Positions 4,791 to 42,264 of a stretch of 47,714 nt of DNA are shown here, in pieces (position 1 is the first letter of the stretch; every line of letters begins with the position of its first letter). The notes under the pieces are model-generated. The model was not told where the DNA came from. It searched no databases and saw nothing but the letters and a program-made list of their open reading frames with translations. This stretch comes from Bacillota bacterium (GTDB lineage Bacteria; Bacillota; Clostridia; Christensenellales; CAG-138). Made by a program: the position numbers and the translations under genes. The DNA lies in NCBI GenBank assembly GCA_023458615.1, contig JAEWYV010000053.1, positions 1 to 47,714 on the forward strand, written 5' to 3'.

Positions 4791-5363
4791 TTGGCATCCG
4801 ACTTCGGACTAAAGATTGGGATCGAGGGCGAAAAAGAGTTCAAGAAAGCCCTCTCGGAGATCAAAGAGTCTGCCGTTCAAGCTGATGACGCTGGTGGGCG
4901 GTTCGACAAGCTGGGTTTGGTTGTAAAGGGCATCGGTGTCGCGCTCGGCGCGGCCATGGCGGCGATCGGTACGGCTACGATTGTGGCGGGCAAAGCGCTC
5001 GTCGATATGACGTTCAACACTGCGGCATATGCGGATGAAATGCTGACGCAGAGTTCCATCACCGGCATGAGCGTGGAACGGTTGCAAGCGTATTCGTATG
5101 CCGCCGATCTCGTGGATGTGTCTTTGGAAACCCTCACCGGCTCTATGGCGAAGAACGTGAAATCCATGTCCAACGACGCCGGTGGGAGTGCGAAGTTTGC
5201 CGAGGCATACGACAGCTTCGGAGTGTCAGTGACGAATGCGTATGCTGGAAGTCTTGATGGAATGACAAGCTATAACCGCCAAGGCTCAGACCGAGCGCTG
5301 CGGTGCGAATTCGATCACCATCCAGATGCTTTAGCTATGATAAGGAATGCAAACAACACTTGA
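4791..5363 (+). pseudogene. Truncated phage tail tape-measure protein (N-terminal relic)
   Basis: TTG start behind AAGGGGG. The N-terminal ~150 aa parallel the resident prophage TMP by eye (IGIEGEKEFKKALSEIK vs ISVKGDKEYSSALKGIK; GIGVALGAAMAAIG...AGKALVDMT...ADEML vs GIGIAIGAVAVAAV...AGKAIFDLT...ADELL). The reading frame then degenerates. No other tail genes are nearby. Confidence 0.65.
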
Positions 5364-5786
5364 AACATTCATAGCGTTTTGCATCGGTCTGATACTTCCG
5401 ACGACGACGAGCTACGACCTCGTCGGTAAGTCCAGGTTCTCCTTTATTGTAAACGAGAAGCACGTGGCTTACCGCTTTTCACGGGTCGGTTACTACAACC
5501 ACACGATTCCTGAGTGCAATGAACTCATGATTAGGCTGGGTGTTGTTCCGATAAGGGGTTCCAGACTACTCTTCAACGATACCCTATAAATCCAACGATT
5601 GCCCATTACTTCAACGATAGCTTTGAGTAGGCATCACAAAAAGCACTCGAAATTATAACCTACAGCCCCGAAGAATCTCCGTTACGGTAAGCTTTATACC
5701 GCAAACAGCAAAAAAGCGCCCGATTTATAGGATTTTTTGGCAAAGAAAAAGAACGATAACTTTCTATCAAAATTACCGTTCTTTTT

Positions 5787-5833
5787 TGGTAGCGGCGATC
5801 TGATTCGAACAGATGACACTCCGGGTATGAACC
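5787..5833. repeat. att core, distal copy (orphan 3' tRNA-Met fragment)
   Basis: TGGTAGCGGCGATCTGATTCGAACAGATGACACTCCGGGTATGAACC is identical to 46678-46724. The flanks diverge immediately on both sides. Confidence 0.85.
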
Positions 5834-5941
5834 ATACACGGTTTGCCGAAAACAATGCTCGGAGAACCGCGGAAAACGCACTAATTATGCGGGATTCTCG
5901 GGGTAGATAGGGTTTACTTGGCAGGTGGATTTCTGCGAAGT

Positions 5942-5961
5942 GGCAAGAAATTGGCAAGAAA
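5942..5961 (+). repeat. Two tandem GGCAAGAAA repeats (putative integrase arm-type sites)
   Basis: GGCAAGAAAttGGCAAGAAA; the same 20-mer recurs at 46580-46599 near the other end of the element. Confidence 0.5.
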
Positions 5962-6202
5962 AATTTTGAATGATCCTAAAGACCTAATTATATATTGGGA
6001 AAGAAAAATAAGGGGGAAACGAAAATATTAATCCCCGCACGAAAAGATATACTCTATTGTATGGACGGATATGATTGAAATATATTAATGAATACAACAA
6101 TATAGAAATGCTTTTCTTCAGAAGGATTTTCTGATCACTTGAGAAGAAGCATTATTGAAAGGTCAGATCGACAGTTATAAATCACGAATTGAAATAGCAG
6201 AA

Positions 6203-6481
6203 CTAGATTACTTGCCGTTCTTCTAATGCTAAGTTAATACCTGAATCTGTTAAATTGTTATTTGATCTTTGCTTGAAATCTAAAACGGCTTGAATAACGG
6301 ATAAATTAGAGCTGTTTAAACAAAAAGTATGCAATTCCCATTCTGATAACTCCGCTAATCCCATAATGAGTTCTCTGTAGCGATCCTTCGATGATTGTGA
6401 TATTCTTGCCTCTTGCATATTCTTCATCTCCACATTTCTTATATTTAATATATTAAGCGGTATGGTTGATTTCCTTAACAT
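6203..6481 (-). CDS. Small hypothetical protein, last gene of the minus-strand island operon
   Basis: 92-aa ORF overlapping the upstream gene by 29 nt. An alternative ATG (MQEARI...) lies 9 nt behind a GGAG. No recognisable motif. Confidence 0.45.
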   Translation of the reverse strand: MLRKSTIPLNILNIRNVEMKNMQEARISQSSKDRYRELIMGLAELSEWELHTFCLNSSNLSVIQAVLDFKQRSNNNLTDSGINLALEERQVI

Positions 6482-8039
6482 TACTCATAAAAAAAGCAGC
6501 ATCCACGCTCTCTTGTTTGAGATACAAGAATGTGGCAACTTCACACCGTAGTCGAGCTTTGCTCCTAACAAAAGGTATAATATAATCATTGCTTTTTCTA
6601 ATTATATCACGACCGGTACTAAGTTTCATTGAAAACAAATCGTAAAATCTTCTAGGACCTACTCCTGCGAATTGCTCAAATACTACCTTTAAATCATGTT
6701 CTTCATCCTCATCTTCGCCAATTGAAACTGCGTCTTTATGTAAATTGGCAGCTTTGCTTTTAAGGTAAGGTTCGATAAATACCAACCGTTTTATGCCAGC
6801 AAAAATTGCGTGACGTGCACAGTTATGGCATGGAAATGTTGTGCAATAAAGTGTTGAATCTTTCAATGACACACCTATGCGACCACAAGTCAACATGGCA
6901 GCCATCTCAGCATGAACAGCTCGACTGAACTCAGTTAAATCTTTTAGTGGTGATTGCAATAGTTGCTGTTTTAAAATATTCTTATATTCCTCCAAAGTCA
7001 TTCCTTTGTAAACATTAGAATCAAAACTGCCATAGTCGAAACTATTAACGATTTCATTAATGATAGTATCGATTTCGTGTTTGTTTGGGTCAAATCCTAA
7101 CGTATAATCACGGCTATCAGGTTTGTCATATCCTTTACGATTATCACAATATTCGACAAGATCTGTTCCTGGCCAATATTGGCCGCCTCCTGGGGCTGGT
7201 ACATCATTTGCTCCTGTCGATATGATATCACAACCATTTGCAATCACGGCGCCAACTTGGCGAGATAAATCAGCAGACCGTAATGACGAAGAATAAGCCA
7301 TAAACATTGCATACTCATCAAAAGTTGGGGTGATATAGGGGTTGCCAAAAAGCAAGTCAAGGATACGGGTTAGTTGCTTACTAATTATCGGTTGCTTATC
7401 TTTTTTTAAAATTTCCCGAGTTATATTTTTATATTTCTTTTTTTTATCTTTCCATCCTTTAAACGATAGATGAAAATCTGCGAGCTGAAAAACCCTCTTT
7501 GTATGTTGCCCATAATCTAAGCTTTCTTCTGCATCACGTTCAATCAGTCTCTCAGTCTCTTCACAATTTATGATTTTGACTTTCTCCAAATAATCCTTTC
7601 GATCATCGTCCGATTCATTGATAGCAAACAAGTAAAAGGTTGAAGTGTAGATTTCTTTAAGCTTATTAACCTCATCTTCGTGCTTTAGGGAGTCAATAAT
7701 ATATGCTACGCCTTTACTAGCATCCATTTTGCAACGGTTACTAATAACCTGTTCGGCCACACCTTGTGCCAAAATCGCGGTGCTGTATTTTCTACGCAAC
7801 TCATTCCCTGCATTCATGAGCTGCCGAGTACTAAGGTATTTATCAGCACTGAGTGGTTCAGTAAGAGTAGGTTCTAATAAATCCTTTGAAATCTTAATTA
7901 CACAAGTCTCGTAATTGAATTCTTTTAATTGATTTGACAACTCATCGATGATAATCGAATTGTCAGTCCCTACGGCACAAGCTAAAGCGATAACAATTTC
8001 TGAGAAAGCAAGATTTTTGTTTGAAATACTGTTAAGCAT
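6453..8039 (-). CDS. AvcD/Dcd-like defensive deoxycytidylate/dCTP deaminase (P-loop kinase-like N-half plus zinc deaminase C-half)
   Basis: 528 aa. C-terminal VHAEMAA...TTFPCHNCARH is the cytidine/dCMP deaminase zinc motif. The N-half has a degenerate P-loop (ALACAVGTD) and a dNMP-kinase-like IIDSLKHEDEVNKLKEIY segment. GAGGTGA SD. Confidence 0.65.
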   Translation of the reverse strand: MLNSISNKNLAFSEIVIALACAVGTDNSIIIDELSNQLKEFNYETCVIKISKDLLEPTLTEPLSADKYLSTRQLMNAGNELRRKYSTAILAQGVAEQVISNRCKMDASKGVAYIIDSLKHEDEVNKLKEIYTSTFYLFAINESDDDRKDYLEKVKIINCEETERLIERDAEESLDYGQHTKRVFQLADFHLSFKGWKDKKKKYKNITREILKKDKQPIISKQLTRILDLLFGNPYITPTFDEYAMFMAYSSSLRSADLSRQVGAVIANGCDIISTGANDVPAPGGGQYWPGTDLVEYCDNRKGYDKPDSRDYTLGFDPNKHEIDTIINEIVNSFDYGSFDSNVYKGMTLEEYKNILKQQLLQSPLKDLTEFSRAVHAEMAAMLTCGRIGVSLKDSTLYCTTFPCHNCARHAIFAGIKRLVFIEPYLKSKAANLHKDAVSIGEDEDEEHDLKVVFEQFAGVGPRRFYDLFSMKLSTGRDIIRKSNDYIIPFVRSKARLRCEVATFLYLKQESVDAAFFMSNVKEINHTA

Positions 8040-8062
8040 CTAATTCACCTCATACCGTATAA

Positions 8063-9850
8063 TTAAATTGGGGGTGGCAGAACGTTTACAAAACTGCTAG
8101 ATTCGCTTAGTAGATCTTCGGAAGGGCTATCGCTGGTGAACATCTCAAGAGCAAATTTGCAATTAAGGTATAGCTGAGATAGATATGCATACTTCCTCGC
8201 AGTAATATCAGGACTGAATTTGCTCTTGGAATGTGCCGCGTTAATTCTGTTATCAAACTCGATTTTAAGAGTTTTTTCTGCTGATAGCTTTAGTGATTCG
8301 ATACATGACACGATTCTCTTATTGCTTATTCGAGTTAGCGAATCTTTATCAATAGTCCATAGGTTACTCTTCTCCTCATCATCAAAACTTCCGATTCCAA
8401 CTTCATCGAAGAGGATTTCTACTTGTTTATCTCCTAATACTAAAAAACCATTATTGCCGTATGGTTGCTCCCCTCTTGACAAATTCTTCACTTCGAGAAA
8501 AATCAGAACACCATTTACATTTAGTAAGTTGCGTATTAATTTGAATGTATTTTCCCAATCTTCTAAAGGGATTTCATGTAACACATTCATGAGGATTACA
8601 ACGTCAAATTTTCCATAATATTTAGTAAGTTTCGATTCTTCAGTGACCAACATAATTTTTGAATCATACTGGTATTTGCGGTCAGGTTTGGGTTCATAAG
8701 CAAAATAGTTTAACTGCAAGTTGCCATTTGAGTTTTCGTATTCGCTTTTGAATGAATCCCATATCCGGCATTTTCCGGCTCCAAAGTCGAGCACTTCTAA
8801 AGGTCTATCTTTTTGTATGTCTCTTAGTTTTGTTATTGTTCTGACAAACTGTTCGTTATTGGAATTCGTGTGTTCAATAACATCTGGCGAGTAAAAACAC
8901 TCTAATATAAACTTATAGAACTGCCAGCTTTCTATTGATTTTAGAAACTCAAATACATCGATATTTTCAAGACCAACTAAACAATTAAAAGCGTTTTTAT
9001 AAATACTACTGTTACGTCGTAAAACACGGCTATTTTCAACTAAAACAATGCTTTCGAAATCAAATAAAGGTACAAGGAATAAAGAGTGTGTAGCTACCCA
9101 AACTTCACTAATACTCTCGGATTCTAACAGCAGATTCATGAGAAAAATTTGCTTTTGAGGATGGAGATGTTGTTCGGGCTCATCGATAATTACAACCAGC
9201 TTTTTATTAGAAGTAGTTTCAATAAAAAATAAAAAGAGCGTAAAATAGAACAACATCAATTCCCCAGGTGAAATCTCTGTCGCCATAAACGCATCTTCCA
9301 AAGTGCAAGTATGCACTACTTCATTATTAAAATATTTATTTACAATGATTTCGTTTTTGTCTTCTTCGAATCTTCGATTCACTAGCTCTTGAAATATTTT
9401 ATTAAATTTATCAAGTGCTGCATATGCTTTCTTTCTTTCCGCGGGAGCTTTAATTTTTGCCAACCCAAAGAAGCCTTTTATGAAATTACAGCGATCTTCA
9501 GCCTGCTCAACGACCTTTAAAAAATCACAGTAGTTTATATCGATATTTCCGTGCAGCAAATCAAAGACATAAGGATTTTTTTCTTGTTCTAAGTCTACAT
9601 CATTATCCACGATTGTGTGTTCAAAAATGTGTGGTGATATCTCTGGAAAATAAAGAGTTACTGTGACAGGATCATCTTTACTCCGTTGCGTTTTTAAATC
9701 TTCAATGGCTTTAAGGAACCTAGTTTTCCCTGCGCCATTTTCGCCAATGACTAAATTCACATCAGAATAACTGATTTCGTCAGCATTCATAATGTGATGA
9801 GCTAGAAATGTTTTTTGATCGTTTTTTGAAAAATTGACCAACTTTCTCAT
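8063..9850 (-). CDS. ABC/OLD-type ATPase fused to a class-I SAM-dependent methyltransferase-like domain
   Basis: Walker A GENGAGKT, SPGE, Walker B VVIIDEPEQHLHP, ATHS. C-half has VLDFGAGKC (motif I), FDVVILMNVLHEIP and NGVLIFLE. Confidence 0.6.
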   Translation of the reverse strand: MRKLVNFSKNDQKTFLAHHIMNADEISYSDVNLVIGENGAGKTRFLKAIEDLKTQRSKDDPVTVTLYFPEISPHIFEHTIVDNDVDLEQEKNPYVFDLLHGNIDINYCDFLKVVEQAEDRCNFIKGFFGLAKIKAPAERKKAYAALDKFNKIFQELVNRRFEEDKNEIIVNKYFNNEVVHTCTLEDAFMATEISPGELMLFYFTLFLFFIETTSNKKLVVIIDEPEQHLHPQKQIFLMNLLLESESISEVWVATHSLFLVPLFDFESIVLVENSRVLRRNSSIYKNAFNCLVGLENIDVFEFLKSIESWQFYKFILECFYSPDVIEHTNSNNEQFVRTITKLRDIQKDRPLEVLDFGAGKCRIWDSFKSEYENSNGNLQLNYFAYEPKPDRKYQYDSKIMLVTEESKLTKYYGKFDVVILMNVLHEIPLEDWENTFKLIRNLLNVNGVLIFLEVKNLSRGEQPYGNNGFLVLGDKQVEILFDEVGIGSFDDEEKSNLWTIDKDSLTRISNKRIVSCIESLKLSAEKTLKIEFDNRINAAHSKSKFSPDITARKYAYLSQLYLNCKFALEMFTSDSPSEDLLSESSSFVNVLPPPI

Positions 9851-9874
9851 ATACAGCCCCGAAGTGTTTGATTA

Positions 9875-9903
9875 AATATATAATAGTATCTAGAAAAACA
9901 CAA
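9875..9903 (-). promoter_or_regulatory. Putative sigma-70 promoter for the minus-strand island operon
   Basis: On the minus strand: TTGTGT, 17 nt, TATATT, about 25 nt upstream of the ATG at 9850. Confidence 0.35.
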
Positions 9904-9969
9904 TCTTTTTTTCTTTCTCCTGTAAGTTACTGGTGTGGCTAAGTAATGACGATTTAAAAAGCGGAAAAT

Positions 9970-9999
9970 TTGCAGTAATATCGATCTTTGTGTTATAAT
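9970..9999 (+). promoter_or_regulatory. Putative extended -10 promoter for the plus-strand island operon
   Basis: TTGCAG (9970-9975), 18 nt, TGtTATAAT (9991-9999); AGGAGG SD at 10013-10018. Confidence 0.5.
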
Positions 10000-10023
10000 A
10001 TACTATTAAATTAGGAGGCGTTT

Positions 10024-10542
10024 ATGTTTATAAAAGCTTCTTCAGAATGCGAAGCGATAGAAAGAATTAAAGATGAAAAAGCGAATATTTCGCAGGGTGA
10101 AACTTTTTATATAGAAATTCAAAAGACGGCAAGCAGAGACACTCATGTGGAACCAAATAAACAATTTTACATGCCGATAATCGACAACGGGATAAAAATA
10201 AATCAAGATATAGTTTTTTGTAGTGGCAAAAGTATTTCTATTTTTCATGAGTTTTCAACAATATTCAATAATATTGATAATATGCCACAAAGTATCGGGC
10301 CATGTACAAAAAATGTTAATGATAATAAAGAATTGACCAGCTATTACATTTCGGTTCAGAGAAAAGAGGATTTGTTAATATTAACATTGAATCTGCATCG
10401 AATTGAAGTTGAGCATTTGCCCAATATTATTCATCAATGGGATCAGCTATGTTCAAGGCTTGTAAAGCATGTGAAATATAAGAACAAAGTGAAGCTTTGT
10501 ATCATAGGAAAAACAGGTGGGGAGAAGCTTGAGTTATTTTGA
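10024..10542 (+). CDS. Hypothetical protein (first gene of five-gene operon)
   Basis: 172 aa, strong SD, AT-rich codon usage consistent with neighbours. No motif recognised. Confidence 0.6.
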   Translation: MFIKASSECEAIERIKDEKANISQGETFYIEIQKTASRDTHVEPNKQFYMPIIDNGIKINQDIVFCSGKSISIFHEFSTIFNNIDNMPQSIGPCTKNVNDNKELTSYYISVQRKEDLLILTLNLHRIEVEHLPNIIHQWDQLCSRLVKHVKYKNKVKLCIIGKTGGEKLELF

Positions 10543-10978
10543 ATTATTACACACAGAAGCCATGAAGAGCGGATGTATGCTCCGAAAATATGCAGCTCTC
10601 GTTGAAAAAAATGGAGAAGTAGTCGGTCTCGGACACGCAACGGTTCCAAACGGGATGCCTTGTGAAGAACTGGGCTTTTGCACCCGCGAGTTAGCGCAAA
10701 AAGAAGTTGACAATAATGCCGAATGTTTCGAACATTGCAGAGTGGTTCACGCAGAAGTGTGTGCCATTCTCCAAGCTGAAAGAAATCTACTTCCAGGAGC
10801 CACGTTACATTTATTAGGAATTTGTTCAGAAAACAGGCAGATATACTCAGGAGCGTTTCCATGCGCATTATGTTTAAACATTATTGAATATGTTGGAATT
10901 AGTAGAATTTGCGTCTTTAGTGCTAGAAACGAACTAACAACTTTCATATTCAAGGAGGGCGTTTGGAATGCTTTGTAA
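10517..10978 (+). CDS. ComEB/dCMP-deaminase-family zinc deaminase
   Basis: GTG start behind AGGAAAA. VVHAEVCAI...GAFPCALCLNII catalytic zinc motif, plus upstream Cys-rich segment (CEELGFCTRE...CFEHC) as in dCMP deaminases. Confidence 0.7.
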   Translation: MGRSLSYFELLHTEAMKSGCMLRKYAALVEKNGEVVGLGHATVPNGMPCEELGFCTRELAQKEVDNNAECFEHCRVVHAEVCAILQAERNLLPGATLHLLGICSENRQIYSGAFPCALCLNIIEYVGISRICVFSARNELTTFIFKEGVWNAL

Positions 10979-11813
10979 ATCAGAAATCAAGGCTATTATT
11001 GAAAAGGGAGCAGTTGTCCCAAAGCCTAATGATGACACTTGGAATAATCCTGCAAAAATCGATCTTCGATTGGGAGAACTATGCTATGTTAGTAGCGATC
11101 CGGATAATATTATAGAACTGGCAAAAGACAGCGATTCTATAATTCTTCCTCCAAATGAAGTTCTGCTATTTCAATCACTCGAGAAATTCAACTTGCCAGG
11201 TAATATCGTTGCACATATGGGCCTTCGAATGAAATACATTTCAAAAGGTCTACTTATGCCAAATGCAACTCATATTGACCCAGGTTATAAAAATTATATA
11301 TTCGGACTTATTTATAATTTATCGAATCAAAATGTCCATATATTTTACAAGGAAGCTATAGCAACTATCGAGTTCGAAGAGATTAAGTTTTCGGGACTAG
11401 AATGCTCGCTTTACGAAGGTTCCATGCAGGAAACAAACTTTAAAACCTTTGTGCAAAATAGAGTAAAAAGTTCATTAGGAATGCTTCAAAAAAGGACAAG
11501 AAAAGCGGTTAGGAATTCAGAAAGGTCATTAAGGATCGGTGGTATCGTGCTTGCTTCAATCTCAGCGGTTATAACTGCAGTCACGCTAGTAATAGCGATA
11601 CCATCAATTTTGGGAATCACAAATTACCAGGATATTGAATACGAGTGTCAAGAGAATGTTCAAAAAATAGAAGAGCTTACAGCAAGGATAGATTCTCTTG
11701 AAAAACAGGTTAAGTATTATGAGAATAACACAATTGAAACTCAAATTGATCCCAATGCGTCGGATTCCGTCGATCAAGGGCTTACTCCAGGAGGATCCGT
11801 AGATGGCCAGTAA
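10968..11813 (+). CDS. dCTP-deaminase/dUTPase-fold protein with C-terminal TM helix and coiled coil
   Basis: AAGGAGGG SD. KIDLRLG...LPPNEVLLFQSLEKFNLP...THIDPGYKNYIFGLIYN aligns by eye with Dcd. GIVLASISAVITAVTLVIAIPSILGI is a TM segment, followed by heptad-like IEELTARIDSLEKQVKYYE. Confidence 0.6.
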   Translation: MLCKSEIKAIIEKGAVVPKPNDDTWNNPAKIDLRLGELCYVSSDPDNIIELAKDSDSIILPPNEVLLFQSLEKFNLPGNIVAHMGLRMKYISKGLLMPNATHIDPGYKNYIFGLIYNLSNQNVHIFYKEAIATIEFEEIKFSGLECSLYEGSMQETNFKTFVQNRVKSSLGMLQKRTRKAVRNSERSLRIGGIVLASISAVITAVTLVIAIPSILGITNYQDIEYECQENVQKIEELTARIDSLEKQVKYYENNTIETQIDPNASDSVDQGLTPGGSVDGQ

Positions 11814-13098
11814 AGAGGTCTCTCTTTTATATTATAATGGAACTGATGCAGCGCATTTTGGTAATTCGAGAAAAGAGTTCCCCCCGATCGGATTACTTTA
11901 CCTCGCAAGTTCTCTTGAAGCTCGAGGCTATTCGGTTGCATTATATGATATTCAGATGATGAGTCCAGATCACTTGAAAAAGATTAGCAATACTGTAATA
12001 GGATTAAGCATAAACGCTAGTTATGTCGTACCATACTTCGTTGATATTATAGAAAAGTTACCCAAAGCAAGGCTAATCATAGGAGGAGGGCAGCATGTTT
12101 CTGCTTCTCCAAGAGAGAGTATAGATCAATTCAGGCTTGATTTTGCGTTTATTGGTGAGAGCGAACATACTCTTCCAGACTTCTTAGATAACTATTTAAT
12201 TAGCAACATTGGATATGAAAATATTCCCGGTATCGCATACATAAAAAATAGAGAATACAAATATACTGGATTAGCTAGTCGGGAAAAATGCTTAGACGAT
12301 CTTCCATTTCCCGCCCGACATTTACTTCCAGAGCAAGATATACTGCTTGATAAACGAATATGGGGCAAGGATATAAAAAGCGTTTCCATGATTACATCTC
12401 GGGGGTGTGTATACAATTGTAATTTTTGCGGGAACCTTTATAAATCATTTTATCATCGTTCTGCACAAAATATTGAAAACGAGATAATCCATATCGAACA
12501 ACAATATCCCGAGGCAAAGGGTATAGTTTTCTTGGATGAAAATTTGTTGTTTTGTGAAGATCATATACTCGATTTATGTAATATAATGAAGAACCATAAT
12601 TTCCTGTGGACAGCGAATGCACGCGTTGATTATATGAATGAGACTGTAGGACAAGCTATGTATTCTTCAGGCTGTGTTGAAATTAAATATGGGGTTGAGA
12701 GCGGAAGTCAGAGAATTCTGAATCGCATGAATAAAAAAATCACCTTGCGTCAAGTGGAAACTGCATTAAAGTGCTCGGCAGAAGTTGGAATATATAATAA
12801 ATGCTTCCTCTTATATGGTTATCCTGGTGATAATATGGAGAGTTCTAATGAAACGATTGCGTTTCTTCAACGAAATCGGAGATATATTAATAGAGTAAAT
12901 TTATTTGATTATACTCCATTGCCAACATCTAGAGATTACCATACATTATTGCATAAAAATTCATATCAATGGGGAGATTTCAGGATATATCGGCAGCACC
13001 AACACTGGTGGGGTTCGGATAGTGAGTACGAAGAAATGTTAAAAGGTTATTTTAATTTAAAAGAATATATCGATAAAAATTTTACAGAAGAAGTGTGA
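11803..13098 (+). CDS. Radical SAM enzyme with B12-binding-like N-terminal domain
   Basis: AGGAGGA SD. CVYNCNFCG (CxxxCxxC). N-terminal PPIGLLYLASSLEARGYSVALYD resembles the cobalamin-binding domain of class-B radical SAM enzymes. Confidence 0.7.
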   Translation: MASKEVSLLYYNGTDAAHFGNSRKEFPPIGLLYLASSLEARGYSVALYDIQMMSPDHLKKISNTVIGLSINASYVVPYFVDIIEKLPKARLIIGGGQHVSASPRESIDQFRLDFAFIGESEHTLPDFLDNYLISNIGYENIPGIAYIKNREYKYTGLASREKCLDDLPFPARHLLPEQDILLDKRIWGKDIKSVSMITSRGCVYNCNFCGNLYKSFYHRSAQNIENEIIHIEQQYPEAKGIVFLDENLLFCEDHILDLCNIMKNHNFLWTANARVDYMNETVGQAMYSSGCVEIKYGVESGSQRILNRMNKKITLRQVETALKCSAEVGIYNKCFLLYGYPGDNMESSNETIAFLQRNRRYINRVNLFDYTPLPTSRDYHTLLHKNSYQWGDFRIYRQHQHWWGSDSEYEEMLKGYFNLKEYIDKNFTEEV

Positions 13099-13103
13099 AG
13101 TAG

Positions 13104-13712
13104 ATGGAAGAAGTCATGGTAATCAATATGCAAACCTTTATGAGTCTAGTTGATGATGGACTAGAAACAAATAGTGTGTACATTGACAAAAACAAGAAAC
13201 TTCTAGATAGAATTTTAGATACACACGAATATATACCCCGAAGCGTTGCCGAACAACAAAGTAATTATAAGCAAATAATACCTTATGCGGTTTTAAGCTA
13301 CCAGGATTATTTTTTTTGCCTAACTAGATTAAAAGCTCAAACAGAAACTAGACTTCATGGGAAACTATCCATTGGTGTTGGTGGCCATATCAACCCTATC
13401 GAAGAGGAGCATCCAGAACCCGTTCTAGCAGGTCTATATAGGGAGTTGTTTGAAGAAGTCGATATTTTTACAGATTATAGCCTGAAGTATATTGGTGTTA
13501 TTTATGAAGAAAGCAGTGAAGTAAGCTGTTTTCATCTTGGTCTTTTGTTTGTATTAAACGTTGATTTTCCACGCGTTATCGTAAGAGAACACGAAAAAAT
13601 GACAGGCGATTGGGTGTCGCTGGAAAAATTAAGGACCGCTTTAAATATTGAGACTTGGTCATCGTTGATTATTCAGAATTGGAACAATATTCAAAATACA
13701 ATCGAGATATAG
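13104..13712 (+). CDS. Nudix-like hydrolase
   Basis: GGHINPIEEEHPEPVLAGLYRELFEEVDI contains E-x7-RE-x2-EE-x-(D)-I, a Nudix-box variant with an insertion after the first Gly. The start codon could lie a few codons downstream. Confidence 0.5.
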   Translation: MEEVMVINMQTFMSLVDDGLETNSVYIDKNKKLLDRILDTHEYIPRSVAEQQSNYKQIIPYAVLSYQDYFFCLTRLKAQTETRLHGKLSIGVGGHINPIEEEHPEPVLAGLYRELFEEVDIFTDYSLKYIGVIYEESSEVSCFHLGLLFVLNVDFPRVIVREHEKMTGDWVSLEKLRTALNIETWSSLIIQNWNNIQNTIEI

Positions 13713-13813
13713 GCTTTGTGTAGATTCACTGTATAATCTATAAAAGAAATACGAATTCTTTGCTTCTCCAGATTTCTATCTAGTTCTGATGTAGATTACA
13801 CGATTCTTAAGCG

Positions 13814-14110
13814 CTATTTGTATGTTAAACTCTCCCTCATCTTTCCCCACAAATCATGCACAAAACTCGGTCCTCTACCCAACGCAACACCGGTGAGCGC
13901 ATAGAGTACATACAGCAGAACAGGTTCCGTGATCTCCACCATCCCCGCAAGGAAGTTGATCTTCGCTACCACGGCGATCACAACGCCAATCCCCATACTC
14001 ACGATCTCCGCAACGGTGATCTTGCCCGCGGTCTTGTCCCAGAGGGGTTTCAGCGTCTGTACGATCGCCTCCACAAAGAGCGCTAAGATAATCAAATTTG
14101 CCAAATCCAT
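13814..14110 (-). CDS. Holin-like small membrane protein
   Basis: 98 aa with three hydrophobic segments and a charged C-terminus; last gene of the lysis cassette. Confidence 0.55.
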   Translation of the reverse strand: MDLANLIILALFVEAIVQTLKPLWDKTAGKITVAEIVSMGIGVVIAVVAKINFLAGMVEITEPVLLYVLYALTGVALGRGPSFVHDLWGKMRESLTYK

Positions 14111-14126
14111 TTCATTCTCCTTTCAT

Positions 14127-14390
14127 TTATCCCACAGCATCATCGCTGTTGATTCCTGTTGTGCTGCCCTGTCCGGTGAACGGGTTCACTCTGCCGAGGA
14201 GCAGCTTGCCTGTTTTAAGGCCGGAGCAGATAAAGATTTCCGATCCCCAGAAGCCGTACCAGAGGCGGGAATACTCCGTGTCGATCCAGAAGTCATACTT
14301 CACCCGCAGCCAAAACAGCACCGCAGTATACGCCGTGATCGCCACCATGGACAGGCAGATGAACTTCGTCAGCGTCGGTATCTTCGCCAT
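14127..14390 (-). CDS. Small membrane protein of lysis cassette (function unknown)
   Basis: 87 aa, N-terminal TM FICLSMVAITAYTAVLFWL, immediately downstream of the endolysin. Confidence 0.45.
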   Translation of the reverse strand: MAKIPTLTKFICLSMVAITAYTAVLFWLRVKYDFWIDTEYSRLWYGFWGSEIFICSGLKTGKLLLGRVNPFTGQGSTTGINSDDAVG

Positions 14391-14399
14391 GCTCCCGCC

Positions 14400-15176
14400 T
14401 CACACATTGCCGTGCAGCACTTCCGACACAAGGTCGCCGAAGAGGTAGCCGACCGATCCGTTATAATCGATCTGATACCAGTCCTCAACCACACCGTAGA
14501 TGTTAAAGACATCGTTCTTTCGTGCCTTCCCAATAATCGTGTAATCCATCCCGGGTCCGCTGCGCACATTGCACCATTTGTTGATCTCGTCCACAACGAT
14601 CTTTCCGATTACCCTTAGATTGTCGGTTTCACCGGAATCCGCCGCCCCGTTGCCGTCCTCCAGCGCCATGAGCGTGTGTCCATCGCGCAGATAGATACCG
14701 CCGCGCTTCGCCAGCTTGTCGATGCTGAGATGCGCGCTGCCACTGTAGGACTTGAACTTGCCGGTCGCCATGAGGCGGGTGCGCATATCGCCCGTGTAGC
14801 CGATAGGTGCCATGTTCAGACCTGCGAGAATATAGCAACTGAGTATGAGGCTGGAACAGTCAAAATCGCCGCGCGCGCCGGACACTACGCCGCCGTTAGC
14901 CTTGATTGAATGGAAACCTTCCCAGCGTTGCGTTTTGCCCTGCGAGTAGCCGAAGGAATCGTCTGCGCAGATCTGCTCCATATACCGCGCGGCGCGCTCC
15001 GCCATGTCGGCGTCGGTGCATTCGAGGTAATATTTCCAGACGCGCCCGGCCTTGTTCTTGGCATACCATGTTGCCAACGCGATCTCTTTTCCTGTCTGGT
15101 CGCCCGTCGTTAACCCTATGGTCTTGCCCAGCTCGTCCATGACCGCGTGACCAATTTGAATCCCCATCTCATTCAC
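14400..15176 (-). CDS. Endolysin: cysteine-peptidase-type cell-wall hydrolase plus C-terminal SH3b domain
   Basis: GDFDCSSLILSCY and DGHTLMAL (Cys/His peptidase pattern). C-terminal NVRSGPGMDYTIIGKARKNDVFNIYGVVEDWYQIDYNGSVGY is SH3b-like. Confidence 0.7.
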   Translation of the reverse strand: MNEMGIQIGHAVMDELGKTIGLTTGDQTGKEIALATWYAKNKAGRVWKYYLECTDADMAERAARYMEQICADDSFGYSQGKTQRWEGFHSIKANGGVVSGARGDFDCSSLILSCYILAGLNMAPIGYTGDMRTRLMATGKFKSYSGSAHLSIDKLAKRGGIYLRDGHTLMALEDGNGAADSGETDNLRVIGKIVVDEINKWCNVRSGPGMDYTIIGKARKNDVFNIYGVVEDWYQIDYNGSVGYLFGDLVSEVLHGNV

Positions 15177-15471
15177 CCTCTTTGTCCGTCAACAACCGAT
15201 CAAGCCGGTCGATTCGCTTGTGTGCCGAATTGGAGGAGGATTCCACCGCGGACAAACGGCTGTAGACCTCGGTGTTCACCTTGCGTTGTTCGCGCTGCTC
15301 CATCTTGATGTCGTCGATGCCGCCCTTGATATATCCAATCTCCGTGAGGATGATCCCATCCCGCTTGCCTTCCGAGCTGTCGTCGGCCTTCTTGTTGCGC
15401 GAAAACGCCAGATAGGCAAACGCGATCGACGCAATCACGCCGAAGATACCGAGTACCGCTTCCCAATTCAT
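15169..15471 (-). CDS. N-terminally membrane-anchored coiled-coil protein (lysis accessory, XhlA-like?)
   Basis: TM LGIFGVIASIAFAYLAF followed by a charged helical region. Overlaps the endolysin start by 8 nt. Confidence 0.45.
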   Translation of the reverse strand: MNWEAVLGIFGVIASIAFAYLAFSRNKKADDSSEGKRDGIILTEIGYIKGGIDDIKMEQREQRKVNTEVYSRLSAVESSSNSAHKRIDRLDRLLTDKEGE

Positions 15472-15525
15472 GTGTATGTCCTCCCAATCAAAAAGAGCCT
15501 TTCGGCTCCTGTCGCTTTCACTTTG

Positions 15526-15744
15526 TTAGGTTTGCGCTTCCAGCTCGGCAATGTGCGCCTGCAGCGCCACTATACGCTCCGCGTCAGTCATGACGATTTC
15601 GCCGTTCTGTGTGAACACACCGTTGGAATAATGATCCCCGATCGCGACCGGACGGTCTTCAACGGGAATTCCATCCATGCCTTCCGGCAGTGGTCCCACG
15701 ATCATGTTCACGACCGTTCCGTCTTCCACAATTGCATAATTCAT
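15526..15744 (-). CDS. Small phage protein, unknown function
   Basis: 72 aa, GGGAGAA SD, between tail fibre and lysis genes. Confidence 0.5.
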   Translation of the reverse strand: MNYAIVEDGTVVNMIVGPLPEGMDGIPVEDRPVAIGDHYSNGVFTQNGEIVMTDAERIVALQAHIAELEAQT

Positions 15745-15753
15745 CTGTTCTCC

Positions 15754-16686
15754 CTATGCCGCTCTCACGTTGCGCACAACGCAAATGCCGGAACCGCCAT
15801 TACCGCTGCCATATGCCGCGGCACCTGCGCCGCCGCCGCCGGAACCTGCACCGGTATTTGCGGCACAAGAATTACTCGCTGCCGCTCCGCCGCCGTTGGT
15901 TCCACCTCCTGCGCCTCCGGCTCCACCGTTTCCTGCGCTGCCACCGCCGCCACCGGCACCCGCGTATAGATCGCCCTCCGGAACGCCGAACTCCCTCGTG
16001 GAGGTTCCCTGTCCTGTGCCGGTTCCCGCCGCGTTGCCGGAGCCATTGGAGCCGTCCGAACCGCCTGCGTAGCCGGTACCCGTCGTTCCCTTGCCACCAC
16101 CGGAACCACCCGAACCGCCGCTCGAACCTGCCGAGTAGGTCAGTCCGCCTGCTCCTCCATTTGCCGTAACGCCGAACGCGCTGGTGTTTCCACCTGCATT
16201 GCCGTTTGCAGAAGTGCCGGTTGCTTTCCCGGCTCCTCCGGCACCAATCACAATCGGGTAATCGACATTGACTTCTGCGGAGATCAGCTGCGTTATCGCA
16301 AAGCCACCGGCACCGCCACCGCCTGCGGTAGACGCACCGGAGCCGCCGCCTCCAACGAGGAAAACCTGAATGTTTCCATTCAGCTTCTGAAACCGCAGCG
16401 TACCGCTCGTCAGGAACTTGATACGCCAATCGCCATTGTTATCGTCCAGCAGAATGTAGCTGCCCGTGTAGGTAAACGAGGGCAGCGTATTTTTTGCACC
16501 TGCGCCGCCGTGGACAATACCGGGACACATGAGAAACGCCGCAGCAAGCAGGAAGAATACCCTTTTCAGAAATCGCGTGCTTTGTTTCCTGCCCGGCACT
16601 ACGCGCGGCAAGAATCCGGAGATGGCGGGGAGAACAGCGCGTACCTTCTGCTGGCACCAATACCAAATCTTGAGCAGCCGTTTCAT
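15754..16686 (-). CDS. Glycine-rich tail-fibre-associated protein
   Basis: Long GGxGG/GxGxG tracts after a hydrophobic N-terminal segment. ATGA overlap with the upstream tail gene. Confidence 0.55.
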   Translation of the reverse strand: MKRLLKIWYWCQQKVRAVLPAISGFLPRVVPGRKQSTRFLKRVFFLLAAAFLMCPGIVHGGAGAKNTLPSFTYTGSYILLDDNNGDWRIKFLTSGTLRFQKLNGNIQVFLVGGGGSGASTAGGGGAGGFAITQLISAEVNVDYPIVIGAGGAGKATGTSANGNAGGNTSAFGVTANGGAGGLTYSAGSSGGSGGSGGGKGTTGTGYAGGSDGSNGSGNAAGTGTGQGTSTREFGVPEGDLYAGAGGGGGSAGNGGAGGAGGGTNGGGAAASNSCAANTGAGSGGGGAGAAAYGSGNGGSGICVVRNVRAA

Positions 16687-17633
16687 TCGTACAAATCTCC
16701 TCTCACAATGACGCGAACCGGAATATCGATCTCCGGCACATCCCCGAACGCCTCAATGGTGATGCTTCCTGCCGCCTGTCCGCCATCCTGCAGATTCGCA
16801 GCCTGATACGCATCCAGCTCATCTGTGGTAATAGGAAGTCCCGGAAACAGTTCCCACGCCGAGACCGTCGTCACGTCCGAGACGTTCAGCACATATGTGT
16901 GATCAGTCCAATTCGACGCGAGCAGCGATGCAATGACAAGAGTCGATTTTGTTGCCGCTCCAATACTCTCCGGCGGGATGGGATCATCTCCATCCTCCGC
17001 GTGCGTTCCGGCATGATTCGGCACCGCCTGCCCGGTCAGCGCCTGGATCAGTGATTGCGCCTGCGTGATCGCCGCGTTCAGCTGCGCTACCGCAACGGAG
17101 GTATCGACGGTAACGTTTTCCGTCACTATCCCGCACACCGTAGCGTCAAATCGCTCGTCCGTGATCATGCCCGCCGTGATCGCCAACGTACCCGCCGCAA
17201 CCCCGATTCGTGCGAGCGAAATCTGCCGCAGAGAAGCGTTGTTCGTGAGCGCCGGGGCAATCGGAGAAACCGCGCTTGTGCCTTTGAGAATCCTGATCTC
17301 CGGCAGCTGCGTATAGTTTGGCGTGGACCACTCGACGATCACGCGGTCGATACGGTTTAATACGCCGTCAGCCGTGTCTATTGCGAGCTGCAACAGCGCC
17401 GCCGTCGAGGCAAAGACGTCGTTCCAGAAATGGATGCCGTTCCCGTTCTGATCGGTCAGCCATCCGTCTCCGTCGGATACCGTTACCGCCATGCCGGGCG
17501 ACGTCAGCGCCGCAACAGCAAGCTCACCGGGCGCGCCGAACACGCCGCTGGTGCGCCCGTGGTGCCAGCGCATGACGTGTTCCGCGCCGATCTCCACGTT
17601 GACGTTGTTCGGATAACTCTTTATCTCTGCCAT
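16683..17633 (-). CDS. Tail fibre/receptor-binding-region protein (unknown family)
   Basis: 316 aa; position after Dit/Tal-like genes; translationally coupled on both sides. Confidence 0.45.
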   Translation of the reverse strand: MAEIKSYPNNVNVEIGAEHVMRWHHGRTSGVFGAPGELAVAALTSPGMAVTVSDGDGWLTDQNGNGIHFWNDVFASTAALLQLAIDTADGVLNRIDRVIVEWSTPNYTQLPEIRILKGTSAVSPIAPALTNNASLRQISLARIGVAAGTLAITAGMITDERFDATVCGIVTENVTVDTSVAVAQLNAAITQAQSLIQALTGQAVPNHAGTHAEDGDDPIPPESIGAATKSTLVIASLLASNWTDHTYVLNVSDVTTVSAWELFPGLPITTDELDAYQAANLQDGGQAAGSITIEAFGDVPEIDIPVRVIVRGDLYE

Positions 17634-18646
17634 GCCAGTTTCATCTCTCCAATCACCGTAATCTCCGGCTCACCCAGCACGATCGACACCGTCTCGTTCT
17701 GCGCCTGTATCGTGCGTTTCACGCCGTTAATGATCGCCGTAAACTGCATCCCAAACCGGTTGGACACGCAGCGCACGCGATCACCCATCTTGTACTTGAT
17801 GCCATACTCGCCCGGATCGACACGCACGGAGAATCCAATGCTCCGCACTCGCTTTGCCGCCTCGGCCGCGCCGGAGGCATCGAGACGCGCTTCGAAGTCG
17901 GCCTGTGGCTCGTCGTTCGCCTGCTTGAGCTTTGAATCGTGCCAGTATTCGTACCGATCGGCACCGGTCGCCGTTCCTACCGTCCGGACGATTGTTGAGC
18001 CATCCGCGAGCGTGCCGAGGACATAGATCACATTCTTGAACAGACTTTCATCGTCCTCAATCTTCAAGTCGCGCGCGGTTCCCTGCTCGTCGGAGAAGAT
18101 CACCGCTTTTGAGCCGGTCGTGAGATCGCTGCCCTTGTAGACTTCAAAGATATGTTTCCGGTTCTTGGTATCGAACGACATTCGTTGTCCCAGTTCCACC
18201 GCGTCGAGAATCGGAATGAACGCATCGAGCAGCTGTCCCCCCGAAAGGATCGCGCTGTAAGCTTCGGGCAGCGCTTGCAAAGGGGCCGTTTCTACATGCG
18301 GAAGACCACGCAGGTTGGCGGCAATCGCCGCATATACGCCGCTCTCCACCGCCAAGATTACCGCGGGCGTCGCAATGGCCCGCTTATTCAAGAGCCAGTT
18401 TGTCGTATAGCCGTTGACCGTGATCCGGTCTTGCGACGTGTCCGGCGAAACGCGCGTGACCACCATCGCCTGATTGATCTTGGTGCGAAACAAGATCGCG
18501 CCTTTGACGAGGTGGGTGATGTTGTATTTCGTCGGCGGCACAACGAGGGTGAATTTGCCGATGTCGTTGTACCATTCCTCCGTCTGGTAGGAGTTGGCGC
18601 GGATTTCGTGATACCCGGTCAGTTCCGGGTTGAAGGCAACTAGCAT
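17621..18646 (-). CDS. Siphovirus tail-tip/baseplate protein (Gp37-like minor structural protein)
   Basis: 341 aa directly after the distal tail protein. The N-terminus resembles the siphovirus Gp37-like family by eye. Confidence 0.5.
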   Translation of the reverse strand: MLVAFNPELTGYHEIRANSYQTEEWYNDIGKFTLVVPPTKYNITHLVKGAILFRTKINQAMVVTRVSPDTSQDRITVNGYTTNWLLNKRAIATPAVILAVESGVYAAIAANLRGLPHVETAPLQALPEAYSAILSGGQLLDAFIPILDAVELGQRMSFDTKNRKHIFEVYKGSDLTTGSKAVIFSDEQGTARDLKIEDDESLFKNVIYVLGTLADGSTIVRTVGTATGADRYEYWHDSKLKQANDEPQADFEARLDASGAAEAAKRVRSIGFSVRVDPGEYGIKYKMGDRVRCVSNRFGMQFTAIINGVKRTIQAQNETVSIVLGEPEITVIGEMKLAWQR

Positions 18647-19491
18647 GTTAGAATCGCCACCTTTTCGATTGCAACGTCGATACTCACCACCACATTGGAT
18701 GCGTCCTCGTCCGCCTCGGTCTTGATCAGGTTGTCGCCGACCGCCATACGCTCTAACGTACTGGTGATCTCCAGATCGCCGCGGATATCGCCGTCGATCG
18801 TGGAGGTGACGTAGGTCAGATCATGCGTGATCTCTATGGTGACCCGCTCTCCCGCCGCCATGGTGCGGTTAAGCTGCATGAATTCGCCGCTGATCGCGTT
18901 GACGAGCCGCGGATTGACGACAGGCCCTTTCGCATTGAACGTCGCGGTGAACGGGCAGGCCACCTGTCCGCTGTTTCGGATGTTGATAAACGCCGTTTCG
19001 ATCGTTTCACCGAAGCGGTAGGGCTGTGAAATGTTCCATGGAAACCGGAAGCGCGGGATCACGCCGGTGAGGATCGTCTTTGTCGCCTGATCCAGCATCC
19101 AGTAGGGATACGGGGCCAAAAGCGCAAACTGGAAGCCCGGAAACCGCAGCGTATTGTCGATCACCGGTGTAGAGGTCGGCGTGACGATCCGGTAGTATGT
19201 CCCGTTGTGATAGAGCCGCGCCCCGATATCCGGCAGCACGACCTGAAACAAGCGCTCCGCGCGCGCTTCAATCTGTGCTCTGGTGCCGAAGAGATAGCCG
19301 GTGATCGTCATGGGTACCGACTGCACTACGCGCGACTGCACCGTGGTTCCAATCTGCCCGATCCCTTGCGCTTGATTCGCGTTCACGGAGATCCCGCTCG
19401 TGCCGGTGATCGACGTGATCCGGTATCCGTTTGTTGCGCTCAGCGCGAGGGAGTCGCCGTTGTCGTTGACGTAGGTAAAGATATCTCTCAT
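18640..19491 (-). CDS. Distal tail protein (Dit)
   Basis: Immediately follows the tape measure with an ATGA start/stop overlap at 19488-19491 (the longer ORF to 19506 lacks an SD). Typical Dit position and size. Confidence 0.65.
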   Translation of the reverse strand: MRDIFTYVNDNGDSLALSATNGYRITSITGTSGISVNANQAQGIGQIGTTVQSRVVQSVPMTITGYLFGTRAQIEARAERLFQVVLPDIGARLYHNGTYYRIVTPTSTPVIDNTLRFPGFQFALLAPYPYWMLDQATKTILTGVIPRFRFPWNISQPYRFGETIETAFINIRNSGQVACPFTATFNAKGPVVNPRLVNAISGEFMQLNRTMAAGERVTIEITHDLTYVTSTIDGDIRGDLEITSTLERMAVGDNLIKTEADEDASNVVVSIDVAIEKVAILTC

Positions 19492-21758: not shown

Positions 21759-21773
21759 AGGGCAACCTCCTTT

Positions 21774-22327
21774 TTACCACGGGAACATCCGGTCGATATC
21801 CGCCTGTGTTGCGTCTCTCACGGTCTTTCCGGTCGATTCCACACAGGCATCCAGGAACAGTCCTATGGTGATTTGGTCCAGTTCGGCGACGGTAAACCCC
21901 ATGCGTTTTGCCACCAGCAAATACGAGGGTACATCGATCTGTCCGCCGTCGCCGTCTACTTTTTTGACGTTTGCAAGCTCGCATTCAGAAGCGGTTTGAG
22001 CTCGCTGAAAATCTCGAAGATCGGGAACGAGACAAACGAATCGATCCAATCCTCCAAGTCCGGGGTCACCGCGTTGTCGTAGGCGCGCGCCATGGTATGC
22101 GCGATTCCGTAAAAGACCATGGTGTTCCAGTTTTTGTTGAGCTTGAACACAGGCTCTGGTTTCTTCTTGCCAAGCTTGGGCTTACCGTCCACCTGCTCGG
22201 TTCCGTCCGCCAGCGTCTGCAGATCGACAAACAGGTCACGTCCGGTCGCGTTGTAGTACCGCACAGGCAAAGACGCCGGTGCTTTGAAACCGACGTCCTG
22301 ACCAGCGATTTTTATGATTTTTTCCAT
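21774..22327 (-). CDS. Tail assembly chaperone -1 frameshift fusion (GT-like)
   Basis: The overlapping -1 frame ORF (21774-22049) continues ...KKVDGDGGQ after the slippery site and ends just before the TMP start. Confidence 0.7.
21956..22327 (-). CDS. Tail assembly chaperone (G-like, frame 0 product)
   Basis: 123 aa between the major tail protein and TMP. Ends ...TCA AAA AAG TAG. Confidence 0.8.
   Translation of the reverse strand: MEKIIKIAGQDVGFKAPASLPVRYYNATGRDLFVDLQTLADGTEQVDGKPKLGKKKPEPVFKLNKNWNTMVFYGIAHTMARAYDNAVTPDLEDWIDSFVSFPIFEIFSELKPLLNASLQTSKK
21959..21965 (-). promoter_or_regulatory. Programmed -1 ribosomal frameshift heptamer A AAA AAG
   Basis: Plus strand CTTTTTT = minus strand AAAAAAG, in the X XXY YYZ phase of frame 0, immediately 5' of the chaperone stop codon. 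Confidence 0.7.
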
Positions 22328-22333
22328 ATCGTC

Positions 22334-22897: not shown

Positions 22898-22905
22898 GTT
22901 TCCTC

Positions 22906-23620: not shown

Positions 23621-23624
23621 GTCT

Positions 23625-24219: not shown

Positions 24220-24244
24220 ACCCGCCTCCTCCTTTCAGCATTCC

Positions 24245-27709: not shown

Positions 27710-27711
27710 TC

Positions 27712-29791: not shown

Positions 29792-29917
29792 GTTCTTTCG
29801 CCCTCCTTTCTTCAGGGAGTTTTTCCCTGTACCCCCTTTTATTTTCGCGCACACTTGGAAGAGGGGATGGCCCCTGGTAGCAAAAGAGTGCTGCCGAATT
29901 GCCTTGACCGGGGGGGA

Positions 29918-32513: not shown

Positions 32514-32577
32514 CGGAAGGTATAGATAACTTAAAGCGATAAATCATCTTACTATAATCTTGCTTATAGGAGGAACC

Positions 32578-41639: not shown

Positions 41640-41642
41640 AAG

Positions 41643-42248: not shown

Positions 42249-42264
42249 AAAAGTCGCGAACCTC

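Follow-up and report, generated by a model that had tools for sequence, protein, structure and literature searches.

Does an AT-rich island that carries three cytosine-deaminase-related proteins in two divergent operons represent one antiphage system, or two that share a slot? The question is raised by contig JAEWYV010000053.1 of an 80%-complete metagenome-assembled genome (GCA_023458615.1) of a Bacillota bacterium (Christensenellales, CAG-138), which was analysed over its whole length of 47,714 nucleotides (hereafter “the window”) and holds a ~41-kb prophage with the island lying between the lysis genes and one attachment (att) site. The minus-strand operon of the island (module A) encodes an AvcD-type deaminase, an ATPase fused to an S-adenosylmethionine (SAM) methyltransferase and a small open reading frame (ORF), and the plus-strand operon (module B) encodes an orphan protein (u172), two deaminase-type proteins, a radical SAM enzyme with a B12-binding domain and a Nudix-like protein. 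We consider it fairly probable that the slot is filled by two independent AT-rich modules, with A acting by AvcD-type nucleotide depletion and B being a rare, undescribed cassette. Judged from its sequence, module A is a new variant of the known AvcD system, and module B may be a new defence system.

A foreign island in a variable cargo slot

Broadly, the composition of the island sets it apart from the rest of the prophage, as an initial annotation made from the DNA alone had claimed. Its guanine-plus-cytosine (G+C) content is 35.6%, as compared to 57.8% for the prophage core (13814-31500), and the ranges of 500-bp windows do not overlap (island maximum 0.408, core minimum 0.514). Windowed G+C is 54-63% across the prophage body and 31-41% over ~5960-13810, with steps from 0.49 (5851-5950) to 0.31 (5951-6050) on the left and from 0.31 (13701-13800) to 0.48-0.52 (13801-13950) on the right, so that the edges do coincide with two copies of a short repeat, GGCAAGAAA, and with the stop of a 98-aa ORF, respectively (Table 1). 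The counts of 13 and 38 G+C given earlier for two 60-nt lines were exact on recount, and the gene layout described (two divergent operons across a 173-bp gap, with two zinc-deaminase folds and one Dcd fold) agrees with the ORFs and with Pfam, which matched dCMP_cyt_deam_1 twice and DCD once.

Forty related genomes were searched at the DNA level for the island, the att region and the 98-aa ORF, which the initial annotation had called a holin (no Pfam match; referred to below as the holin). Holin and att region were matched many times, the former at 71-84% DNA identity in sister prophages, and the island interior was not found in these 40 genomes save for one 41-nt match (E 5.6e-4). A further DNA search of 5000-14500 against E. 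coli genomes and phage records gave no match. Eight places with a holin match were retrieved, and the six with att or repeat matches nearby were annotated. One genome (G020) holds three copies of the prophage family (L009, L011, L012), each with different slot genes: two carry type I restriction-modification sets, and the slot of the third, normal in G+C, holds a two-component system along with NAGPA genes. The slot in G021 is occupied by Vsr, a Dcm-type methylase and MzaB-E, and those in G006 and G024 by polysaccharide clusters; a MADS-like assignment of the G006 locus (L015), based on weak PADLOC matches, was dropped, as Pfam describes a polysaccharide and ABC-2 export cluster. Known defence systems are thus present in three of the six comparator slots, and since in all six the genes beside the holin are not those of the window, this position is a variable cargo slot. 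Together, the missing interior and the differently filled sister slots support the earlier proposal of horizontal acquisition at the prophage end: a prophage integrated at tRNA-Met carries the island as imported DNA in a slot whose contents vary.

The prophage ends were located by aligning 5740-5860 with 46630-46760, in which 5786-5834 and the 3′ part of a tRNA-Met gene share 49 identical bp. The same stretch also matched 46672-46724 and tRNA genes of relatives in the search of related genomes, and we therefore take it and its copy in the tRNA as the att sites of the ~41-kb element. This differs from the earlier placement of the att core at the GGCAAGAAA repeats, which lie 108 bp further in. 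The repeats are present just within both att copies, with three further copies at 46580-46610 adjoining the tRNA-side one, and sister prophages within the genus retain the repeat stretch beside att (25-30 bp at 93-100% identity), with one additional place at 86% identity over 43 bp. These repeats are probably arm-type integrase sites.

Two modules that recur without each other

To evaluate whether the two operons travel together, each was followed through other genomes. A scan for the radical SAM protein, using one genome per species, gave 79 loci, in four of which the order deaminase, Dcd-like protein, radical SAM enzyme and Nudix-like protein is kept (L017, L018 and L052 from Bacillota, L019 from Bacteroidota). 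Neither a full AvcD-type gene nor the ATPase-methyltransferase lies beside the cassette in any of these four, and the 79 loci as a whole yielded no full AvcD gene and no small ORF (three AvcD matches fall on the small deaminase, and one locus has an ATPase-only match at 3e-5). The metagenome scan for the ATPase-methyltransferase fusion gave 80 loci, and with one viral-contig locus added, 22 cover the methyltransferase half. Two of these metagenome loci (L126 and L127) carry all of module A, with no module-B gene within 6-8 kb on each side. Hence the divergent arrangement of the window was met in none of the four cassette loci and neither of the two module-A loci. Other copies of both modules are likewise AT-rich inserts amid richer DNA, e.g., a 36-39% G+C insert within a 49-56% context in L018.

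These results bear directly on the proposal of the initial annotation that the two operons are functionally linked, either as two arms of one system or as a system with its self-protection. This was not borne out, because each operon recurs without the other, which is the outcome that had been named as speaking against such a link. A joint system, in which for example one operon would alter or deplete the pyrimidine pool and the other shield the host, could draw on the facts that both operons would act on deoxycytidine (dC) nucleotides, share the 173-bp divergent control region, are alike in G+C (35.7% and 36.2%) and have relatives in Bacillota metagenome genomes. We nonetheless regard it as very unlikely, given that the modules were not met together elsewhere, that their zinc deaminases are 27% identical over only 92 residues (the catalytic core), and that the slots of sister prophages hold unrelated cargo. 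Functional synergy may still exist between the two operons, as both would have dC nucleotides as their targets. As for the control region itself, an AGGAGG stands 5 nt ahead of the ATG at 10024 with TGTTATAAT upstream of it, and a promoter and terminator scan was uninformative (28 and 4 sites vs. 31.4 +/- 5.7 and 5.7 +/- 2.7 in shuffled sequence).

We thus favor two independent mobile modules, which would have been placed back to back in a slot between the att-side arm-type repeats and the lysis genes.

Table 1. Coordinates of the island, its genes and the prophage features in the window.
Feature	Position	Strand	Basis or remark
AT-rich cargo island	5968-13813		G+C 35.6%
Module A: AvcD-family anti-phage dCTP deaminase, 528 aa	6453-8039	minus	NF041025, PADLOC dCTPase
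Module A: ABC/OLD-type ATPase (AAA_21/AAA_15) fused to class I SAM methyltransferase, 595 aa	8063-9850	minus	
Module A: small ORF directly after the deaminase gene, candidate partner	6203-6481	minus	92 aa as listed; 74 aa from Met19 (base 6427)
Divergent intergenic region, 173 bp	9851-10023		
Module B: u172, orphan first gene, 172 aa	10024-10542	plus	No family match
Module B: small zinc deaminase, dCMP-deaminase type, 153 aa	10517-10978	plus	Pfam dCMP_cyt_deam_1 1.3e-9
Module B: Dcd/dUTPase-fold protein, 281 aa	10968-11813	plus	Domain at residues 1-150, one transmembrane helix, C-terminal coiled coil
Module B: radical SAM enzyme with B12-binding domain, 431 aa	11803-13098	plus	Pfam
Module B: Nudix-like phosphoesterase, TM1382 family, 202 aa	13104-13712	plus	PDB 3e57
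98-aa ORF (“holin”), right edge of the island	13814-14110	minus	ORF listing
Endolysin	14400-15176		Pfam ELLD 8.8e-46 and SH3_3
att core, lysis-side copy, 49 bp	5786-5834		Identical to 3′ part of tRNA-Met
Two GGCAAGAAA repeats, left edge of the island	5942-5950, 5953-5961	plus	Exact copies
tRNA-Met(cat), integration target at the other prophage end	46678-46754	minus	ARAGORN; only tRNA gene in the window
CI-like repressor	35843-36460		Within the element
Integrase	36582-37664		Within the element
HsdM	37715-39325		
HsdS	40401-41639		
HsdR	43447-46479		

Module A, a three-gene variant of the AvcD system

The 528-aa deaminase scores above the cut-off of the AvcD family model NF041025 (429.2 vs. 400 bits) over nearly the whole profile (positions 1-434 of 437), and also matches the PADLOC dCTPase model (1.5e-150) and Pfam dCMP_cyt_deam_1 (4.5e-16). 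Its zinc-site motifs, HAE (in VHAEMAAM) and PCxxC (in FPCHNC), are invariant in a three-sequence alignment, and like described members of AvcID it lies on a mobile element. AvcD converts dC to deoxyuridine (dU) nucleotides once host transcription stops, and AvcI is an RNA antitoxin, according to PMC10511110. By this mechanism, which is established for the family and which we infer here, the deaminase of module A would turn dC into dU nucleotides once a phage shuts down its host, and so starve phage DNA synthesis.

The 595-aa protein encoded upstream combines an ATPase (Pfam AAA_21, 3.9e-14) with a methyltransferase (Methyltransf_23, 7e-8). Its N-terminal half best matches the ATPases of PARIS (AriA), Gabija (GajA) and Septu or retrons (PtuA): the closest PADLOC models are AriA (2.2e-16), PtuA and GajA, and the closest PDB structures AriA, a chain labelled simply “AAA family ATPase” and GajA, with PtuA among them also. 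Unlike in those systems, the ATPase is fused to a SAM methyltransferase and is not paired with a Toprim or HNH nuclease; its neighbors are the deaminase and the small ORF, and no AriB Toprim, GajB or PtuB HNH partner was matched. The fusion family comprises ~150 clusters at 29-46% identity, none of which bears a functional name. It was not found in 398 other genomes of the class. In viral contigs, no true relative emerged when the single protein served as query, and an alignment as query brought up only generic ATPase matches and one 27% match.

A third gene, the small ORF, has no Pfam or PADLOC match. In L126 and L127, where the fusion is 41% and 38% identical and AvcD 46% and 48% identical to those of the window, respectively, an ORF of 69-70 aa directly follows the deaminase stop at the same place. 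The three small ORFs share W-x-[LIV]-x3-C-[LIV]-[DN]-x-S-[DN]-[LIV], a motif confined to these three places among 302 loci (3.74 Mb, read in six frames); its presence in the three is by construction, and its absence elsewhere is the informative part. The three-gene neighborhood is thus kept in all three loci whose fusion is at least 38% identical, with proteins at 38-51% identity and wholly different flanks.

To look at a possible contact between deaminase and small protein, their complex was predicted, with a score of 0.37 vs. 0.00 for the best of three controls, runs agreeing in at least 66% of contacts and a partner confidence (predicted local distance difference test, pLDDT) of at least 58. 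In the calibration of this procedure, 116 of 157 solved complexes passed the mark, as did 2 of 215 mismatched pairs; scores of at most 0.60 came from only 18 of the 157 and from both mismatches that passed. By this calibration, a pass at the level of 0.37 is wrong more often than not, unless the pairing was probable beforehand. The prediction therefore lends weak support to a deaminase that binds the small protein.

From these gene contents, the sub-clade formed by the window, L126 and L127 is a three-gene variant of the AvcD system, in which the two partners would have the roles proposed here. Here the deaminase gene is accompanied by genes for an ATPase-methyltransferase and a ~70-aa protein, both missing from the other AvcD loci examined, and only 23 bp separate it from the upstream ATPase-methyltransferase gene, which would leave no room for an upstream RNA gene. 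Rfam gave no match over 5500-14300, a negative that would cover an AvcI-type RNA only if Rfam holds a model of it. We propose that regulation of the deaminase would fall to the ATPase-methyltransferase and the ~70-aa protein, either as substitutes for the AvcI RNA antitoxin or alongside it.

More distant fusions (24-31% identity) had no avcD in the flanking DNA examined. One of them stands as a lone AT-rich gene (L138), and in another locus (L145, 5602-9605) a relative of 26% identity lies behind a 770-aa HD-domain gene and overlaps it, a hint that the effector paired with the fusion protein may vary.

Module B, a rare cassette around a B12-type radical SAM enzyme

In the 153-aa deaminase of module B, HAE, PCxxC and four additional cysteines are invariant in all five orthologs, and dCMP deaminases are its closest solved structures. 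The Dcd-like protein matches Pfam DCD (1.2e-15, 58.4 bits vs. a cut-off of 27) and, among solved structures, chains of 155-156 aa named “dCTP deaminase” (4e-23). All five aligned orthologs have a hydrophobic stretch after the Dcd domain and then a tail resembling a coiled coil, and the basic residues ahead of the helix and acidic ones after it in the window copy suggest an N-in, C-out topology. While both proteins share folds and, for the deaminase, zinc motifs with housekeeping Dcd (TIGR02274) and dCMP deaminase (ComEB), they score under the equivalog cut-offs (62.3 vs. 92.8 and 19.2 vs. 219 bits, respectively), and differ from them by the membrane anchor and coiled coil of the one and the four extra cysteines of the other. 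The Nudix-like protein matches Thermotoga TM1382 over its whole length (PDB 3e57, 2e-42), and its R-E-L-x-E-E motif is invariant in all five orthologs; the window copy has no Pfam match at E 0.01 or better, and the L017 ortholog matches Pfam NUDIX with 23.7 bits (cut-off 21.1). Among 299 other genomes of the class, three encode a member of this family, with the cassette missing at the two loci inspected, where the TM1382-type gene converges with a 627-aa ORF on the opposite strand (L292, 4099-6733; L293, 4258-6800).

The 431-aa protein carries both a B12-binding domain (Pfam, 1.4e-12; 47.9 vs. 32.1 bits) and a Radical_SAM domain (6.5e-15; 56.1 vs. 29.5 bits), with the cysteines of its CxxxCxxC motif (C202, C206, C209) invariant in 45 sequences. 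It thus has the domains and motif of a class B radical SAM enzyme, with predicted cobalamin binding. Its closest relatives are ~50% identical, and no NCBIfam equivalog applies: all 24 matches were far below their cut-offs, the best being ApyD (112.5 vs. 750 bits), with PhpK, HpnJ, AprD4 and BchE also among the named B12 radical SAM subfamilies compared. Among solved structures, AprD4 and QCMT are closest (~1e-24), followed by OxsB (PDB 5ul2, 3.7e-17).

The first gene, u172, had no Pfam, PADLOC or NCBIfam match and was not found in any of the 79 radical SAM loci. Against 1.84 billion representative proteins it matched only itself and a 3082-aa cadherin/FG-GAP repeat protein, a relation that we rejected as a summed chance match to repeats. 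Its ESM Atlas model, which is weak (pLDDT 0.56), lies nearest to models of the thymidylate-synthase family (template-modeling score 0.62-0.68), and an AlphaFold2 single-sequence model was unusable (pLDDT 48).

Next, a tree of 102 radical SAM proteins was used to place the cassette within its wider family (a quick search with several long branches, so that the deeper joins are unsure). The window protein groups with those of the four cassette loci and with 29 close proteins in a clade of 34 rows (SH-aLRT 97), which adjoins operons of radical SAM, CAP12/Pycsar-type TIR and HD genes and lies inside a group associated with AlkZ, kinase and MazG. Across the 72 of 79 loci that were analysable, and with names taken from one representative per cluster, the neighbors include an AlkZ-like glycosylase in 38, a thymidylate-kinase-like protein in 21 and MazG in 19, with CYTH (5), Nudix (3) and Pycsar-type TIR plus HD (2) being rarer. 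An operon of thymidylate-kinase-like, B12 radical SAM, AlkZ-like and MazG genes is widespread in Actinomycetota and other phyla (L020-L095, e.g., L078, 10001-12912), and a literature search gave no publication on such a cluster. The TIR-HD operons are from Bacteroidota (L055, 9998-13389; L056, 9998-13370), and the one in L055 adjoins TOTE primase-helicase (AEP-helicase) and Schlafen/AlbA_2 genes. The cassette copy in L019 itself adjoins an Eco57I-like methylase, an SMC-like ATPase, a helicase, a transposase and an integrase. Such neighborhoods suggest a nucleotide as substrate and, in part of the family, a connection with conflict systems.

In the scheme that we consider most likely, dC nucleotides would be channelled to dU mononucleotides by the Nudix enzyme together with both deaminase-type proteins, and the radical SAM enzyme would then modify a pyrimidine (deoxy)nucleotide by radical chemistry. 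The cell would thereby lose dCTP, gain a modified nucleotide unusable in phage replication, or both. A bolder version of this scheme, which we hold to be unlikely as it stands, is that the clade represents a second, viperin-independent route to antiviral or immune modified pyrimidine (deoxy)nucleotides: the deaminases and Nudix protein of the cassette would supply or tidy the radical SAM substrate, the effector of the TIR-HD sister operons would read the product, and the DNA glycosylase of the kinase/MazG/AlkZ-like operons of Actinomycetota would guard against it.

Two known systems offer partial parallels. Prokaryotic viperins (pVip) with nucleotide kinases follow an alike logic, in that the wider clade places a radical SAM protein beside thymidylate-kinase-like, MazG and Nudix proteins in a mobile or defence-island setting. 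The module-B enzyme differs by its B12-binding domain, and the pVip model was not matched, the PADLOC search at E 0.01 or better returning only PDC-M51A. The second parallel is oxetanocin A biosynthesis, where OxsA is an HD phosphohydrolase; the partner of OxsB is hence an HD protein and that of module B a Nudix protein. In addition, AprD4 and QCMT match the module-B enzyme better than OxsB, which is longer (744 aa) and has extra domains. The likeness is that of a B12 radical SAM enzyme acting on a deoxynucleotide with a phosphohydrolase partner; the chemistry of OxsB is described in PMC12931638. Ophion (radical SAM, PHP and PRTase; bioRxiv 10.1101/2025.09.30.679545) was set aside as a different system. 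Overall, module B corresponds to no PADLOC system and to no describing paper in our literature search, with the limit that supplementary candidate lists of defence-discovery papers could include the cassette; literature retrieved by PDB codes 8Y1W, 9LN0 and 9LN3 gave only unrelated matches.

Alternative explanations

Several observations weigh against reading the island as an AvcD-type depletion system next to a candidate defence cassette. For module A, the fusion gene stands head to head with avcD in L126 and L127 and is co-directional with it in the window, two AvcD genes above the cut-off (among the 398 class genomes) sit in genomes with no detected ATPase-methyltransferase, and viral-contig AvcD genes lack both partners, from which it follows that these partners are not general to the AvcD family. 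For module B, two of the five cassette copies (L018 and L052) are surrounded by housekeeping genes, without any defence gene nearby (L017 being too short to judge), PADLOC gave only a weak generic radical SAM match (PDC-M51A, 2.4e-8), and u172 is unique to the window copy. The Nudix-like family is very large (“predicted NUDIX family phosphoesterase”) and occurs in unrelated contexts as well, and the reaction of the radical SAM enzyme cannot be read from its relatives, since AprD4 catalyzes a dehydration, QCMT a methylation and OxsB a ring contraction. Finally, R-S-S-x-x-R is the conserved nucleotide-binding stretch of Dcd, and where the nearest solved chain reads RSSLAR, the cassette profile has LRM-x3-K/R; this alteration, together with the score under the TIGR02274 cut-off, suggests that the Dcd-like protein may bind a nucleotide instead of deaminating it.

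How far do these points favor other explanations? That the ATPase-methyltransferase is a separate single-gene defence merely beside avcD, with the small ORF not a gene, would fit the change in orientation, the distant fusions found alone or after an HD-domain gene, and the weak complex prediction. Against it stand the conservation of the three-gene neighborhood, through protein drift and a complete change of flanks, and the restriction of the small-ORF motif to the same three loci, and we consider it unlikely. The location of two cassettes among housekeeping genes would similarly fit a role of module B in nucleotide metabolism or DNA modification, such as folate-independent synthesis of C5-modified dUMP or dCMP for prophage DNA, or of extra dTMP. 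Phage pyrimidine hypermodification pathways converge on dUMP, as would the Dcd-like protein, the dCMP deaminase and the Nudix protein, and the weak u172 model nearest thymidylate synthases might point the same way. This explanation appears quite unlikely to us, however, because the cassette lacks a kinase, polymerase or transferase and sits as AT-rich inserted DNA in the chromosomes of bacteria from different phyla, because 80 viral-contig loci with B12 radical SAM genes showed at most 30% identity and no other cassette gene in any of them, and because u172 is absent from the other four copies and its AlphaFold2 model is of no use. A third possibility is a nucleotide-derived signal, with the radical SAM protein as messenger synthase and the membrane-anchored Dcd-like protein as effector or receptor. 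The CAP12/Pycsar-type TIR effector and HD protein that follow the radical SAM gene in the neighboring clade are consistent with this, as is a Dcd-like protein that has a transmembrane helix and no RSS-type motif. Yet we know of no radical SAM enzyme acting as a signal synthase, a lone transmembrane helix is ill suited to forming a pore, and the cassette holds two further catalytic enzymes with intact active-site motifs, all of which makes such signaling very improbable.

Other cargo of the prophage

Outside the island, the stretch from the integrase to the tRNA-side att holds a type I restriction-modification set (37715-46479). Within this set stand a RhuM-family gene (39258-40340), a 201-aa ORF of no assigned family and a PIN_12 gene (42470-43444), which interrupt it, and its middle part (40401-43446) has 38% G+C. 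With this set near the tRNA end and the island near the other, the element carries cargo just within both of its ends. A second AT-rich patch (31740-33330, 38% G+C) holds ORFs of 257 and 256 aa without a Pfam match, and adjoins a gene with ParB-N and N6/N4 DNA methylase domains (30306-31475).

Significance

Nucleotide depletion and nucleotide poisoning are among the newer themes in phage defence. In this context, module A suggests that AvcD-type deaminases are perhaps under the control of protein partners, beyond an RNA antitoxin alone. Module B adds a small cassette of four genes that includes a B12-type radical SAM enzyme. In many phyla, relatives are associated with nucleotide kinases, pyrophosphatases, a DNA glycosylase or a TIR effector, and the product of the cassette, once found, could open a new class of modified nucleotides. 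Beyond the two modules, the slot shows one prophage family swapping defence and surface-modification cargo at a fixed site.

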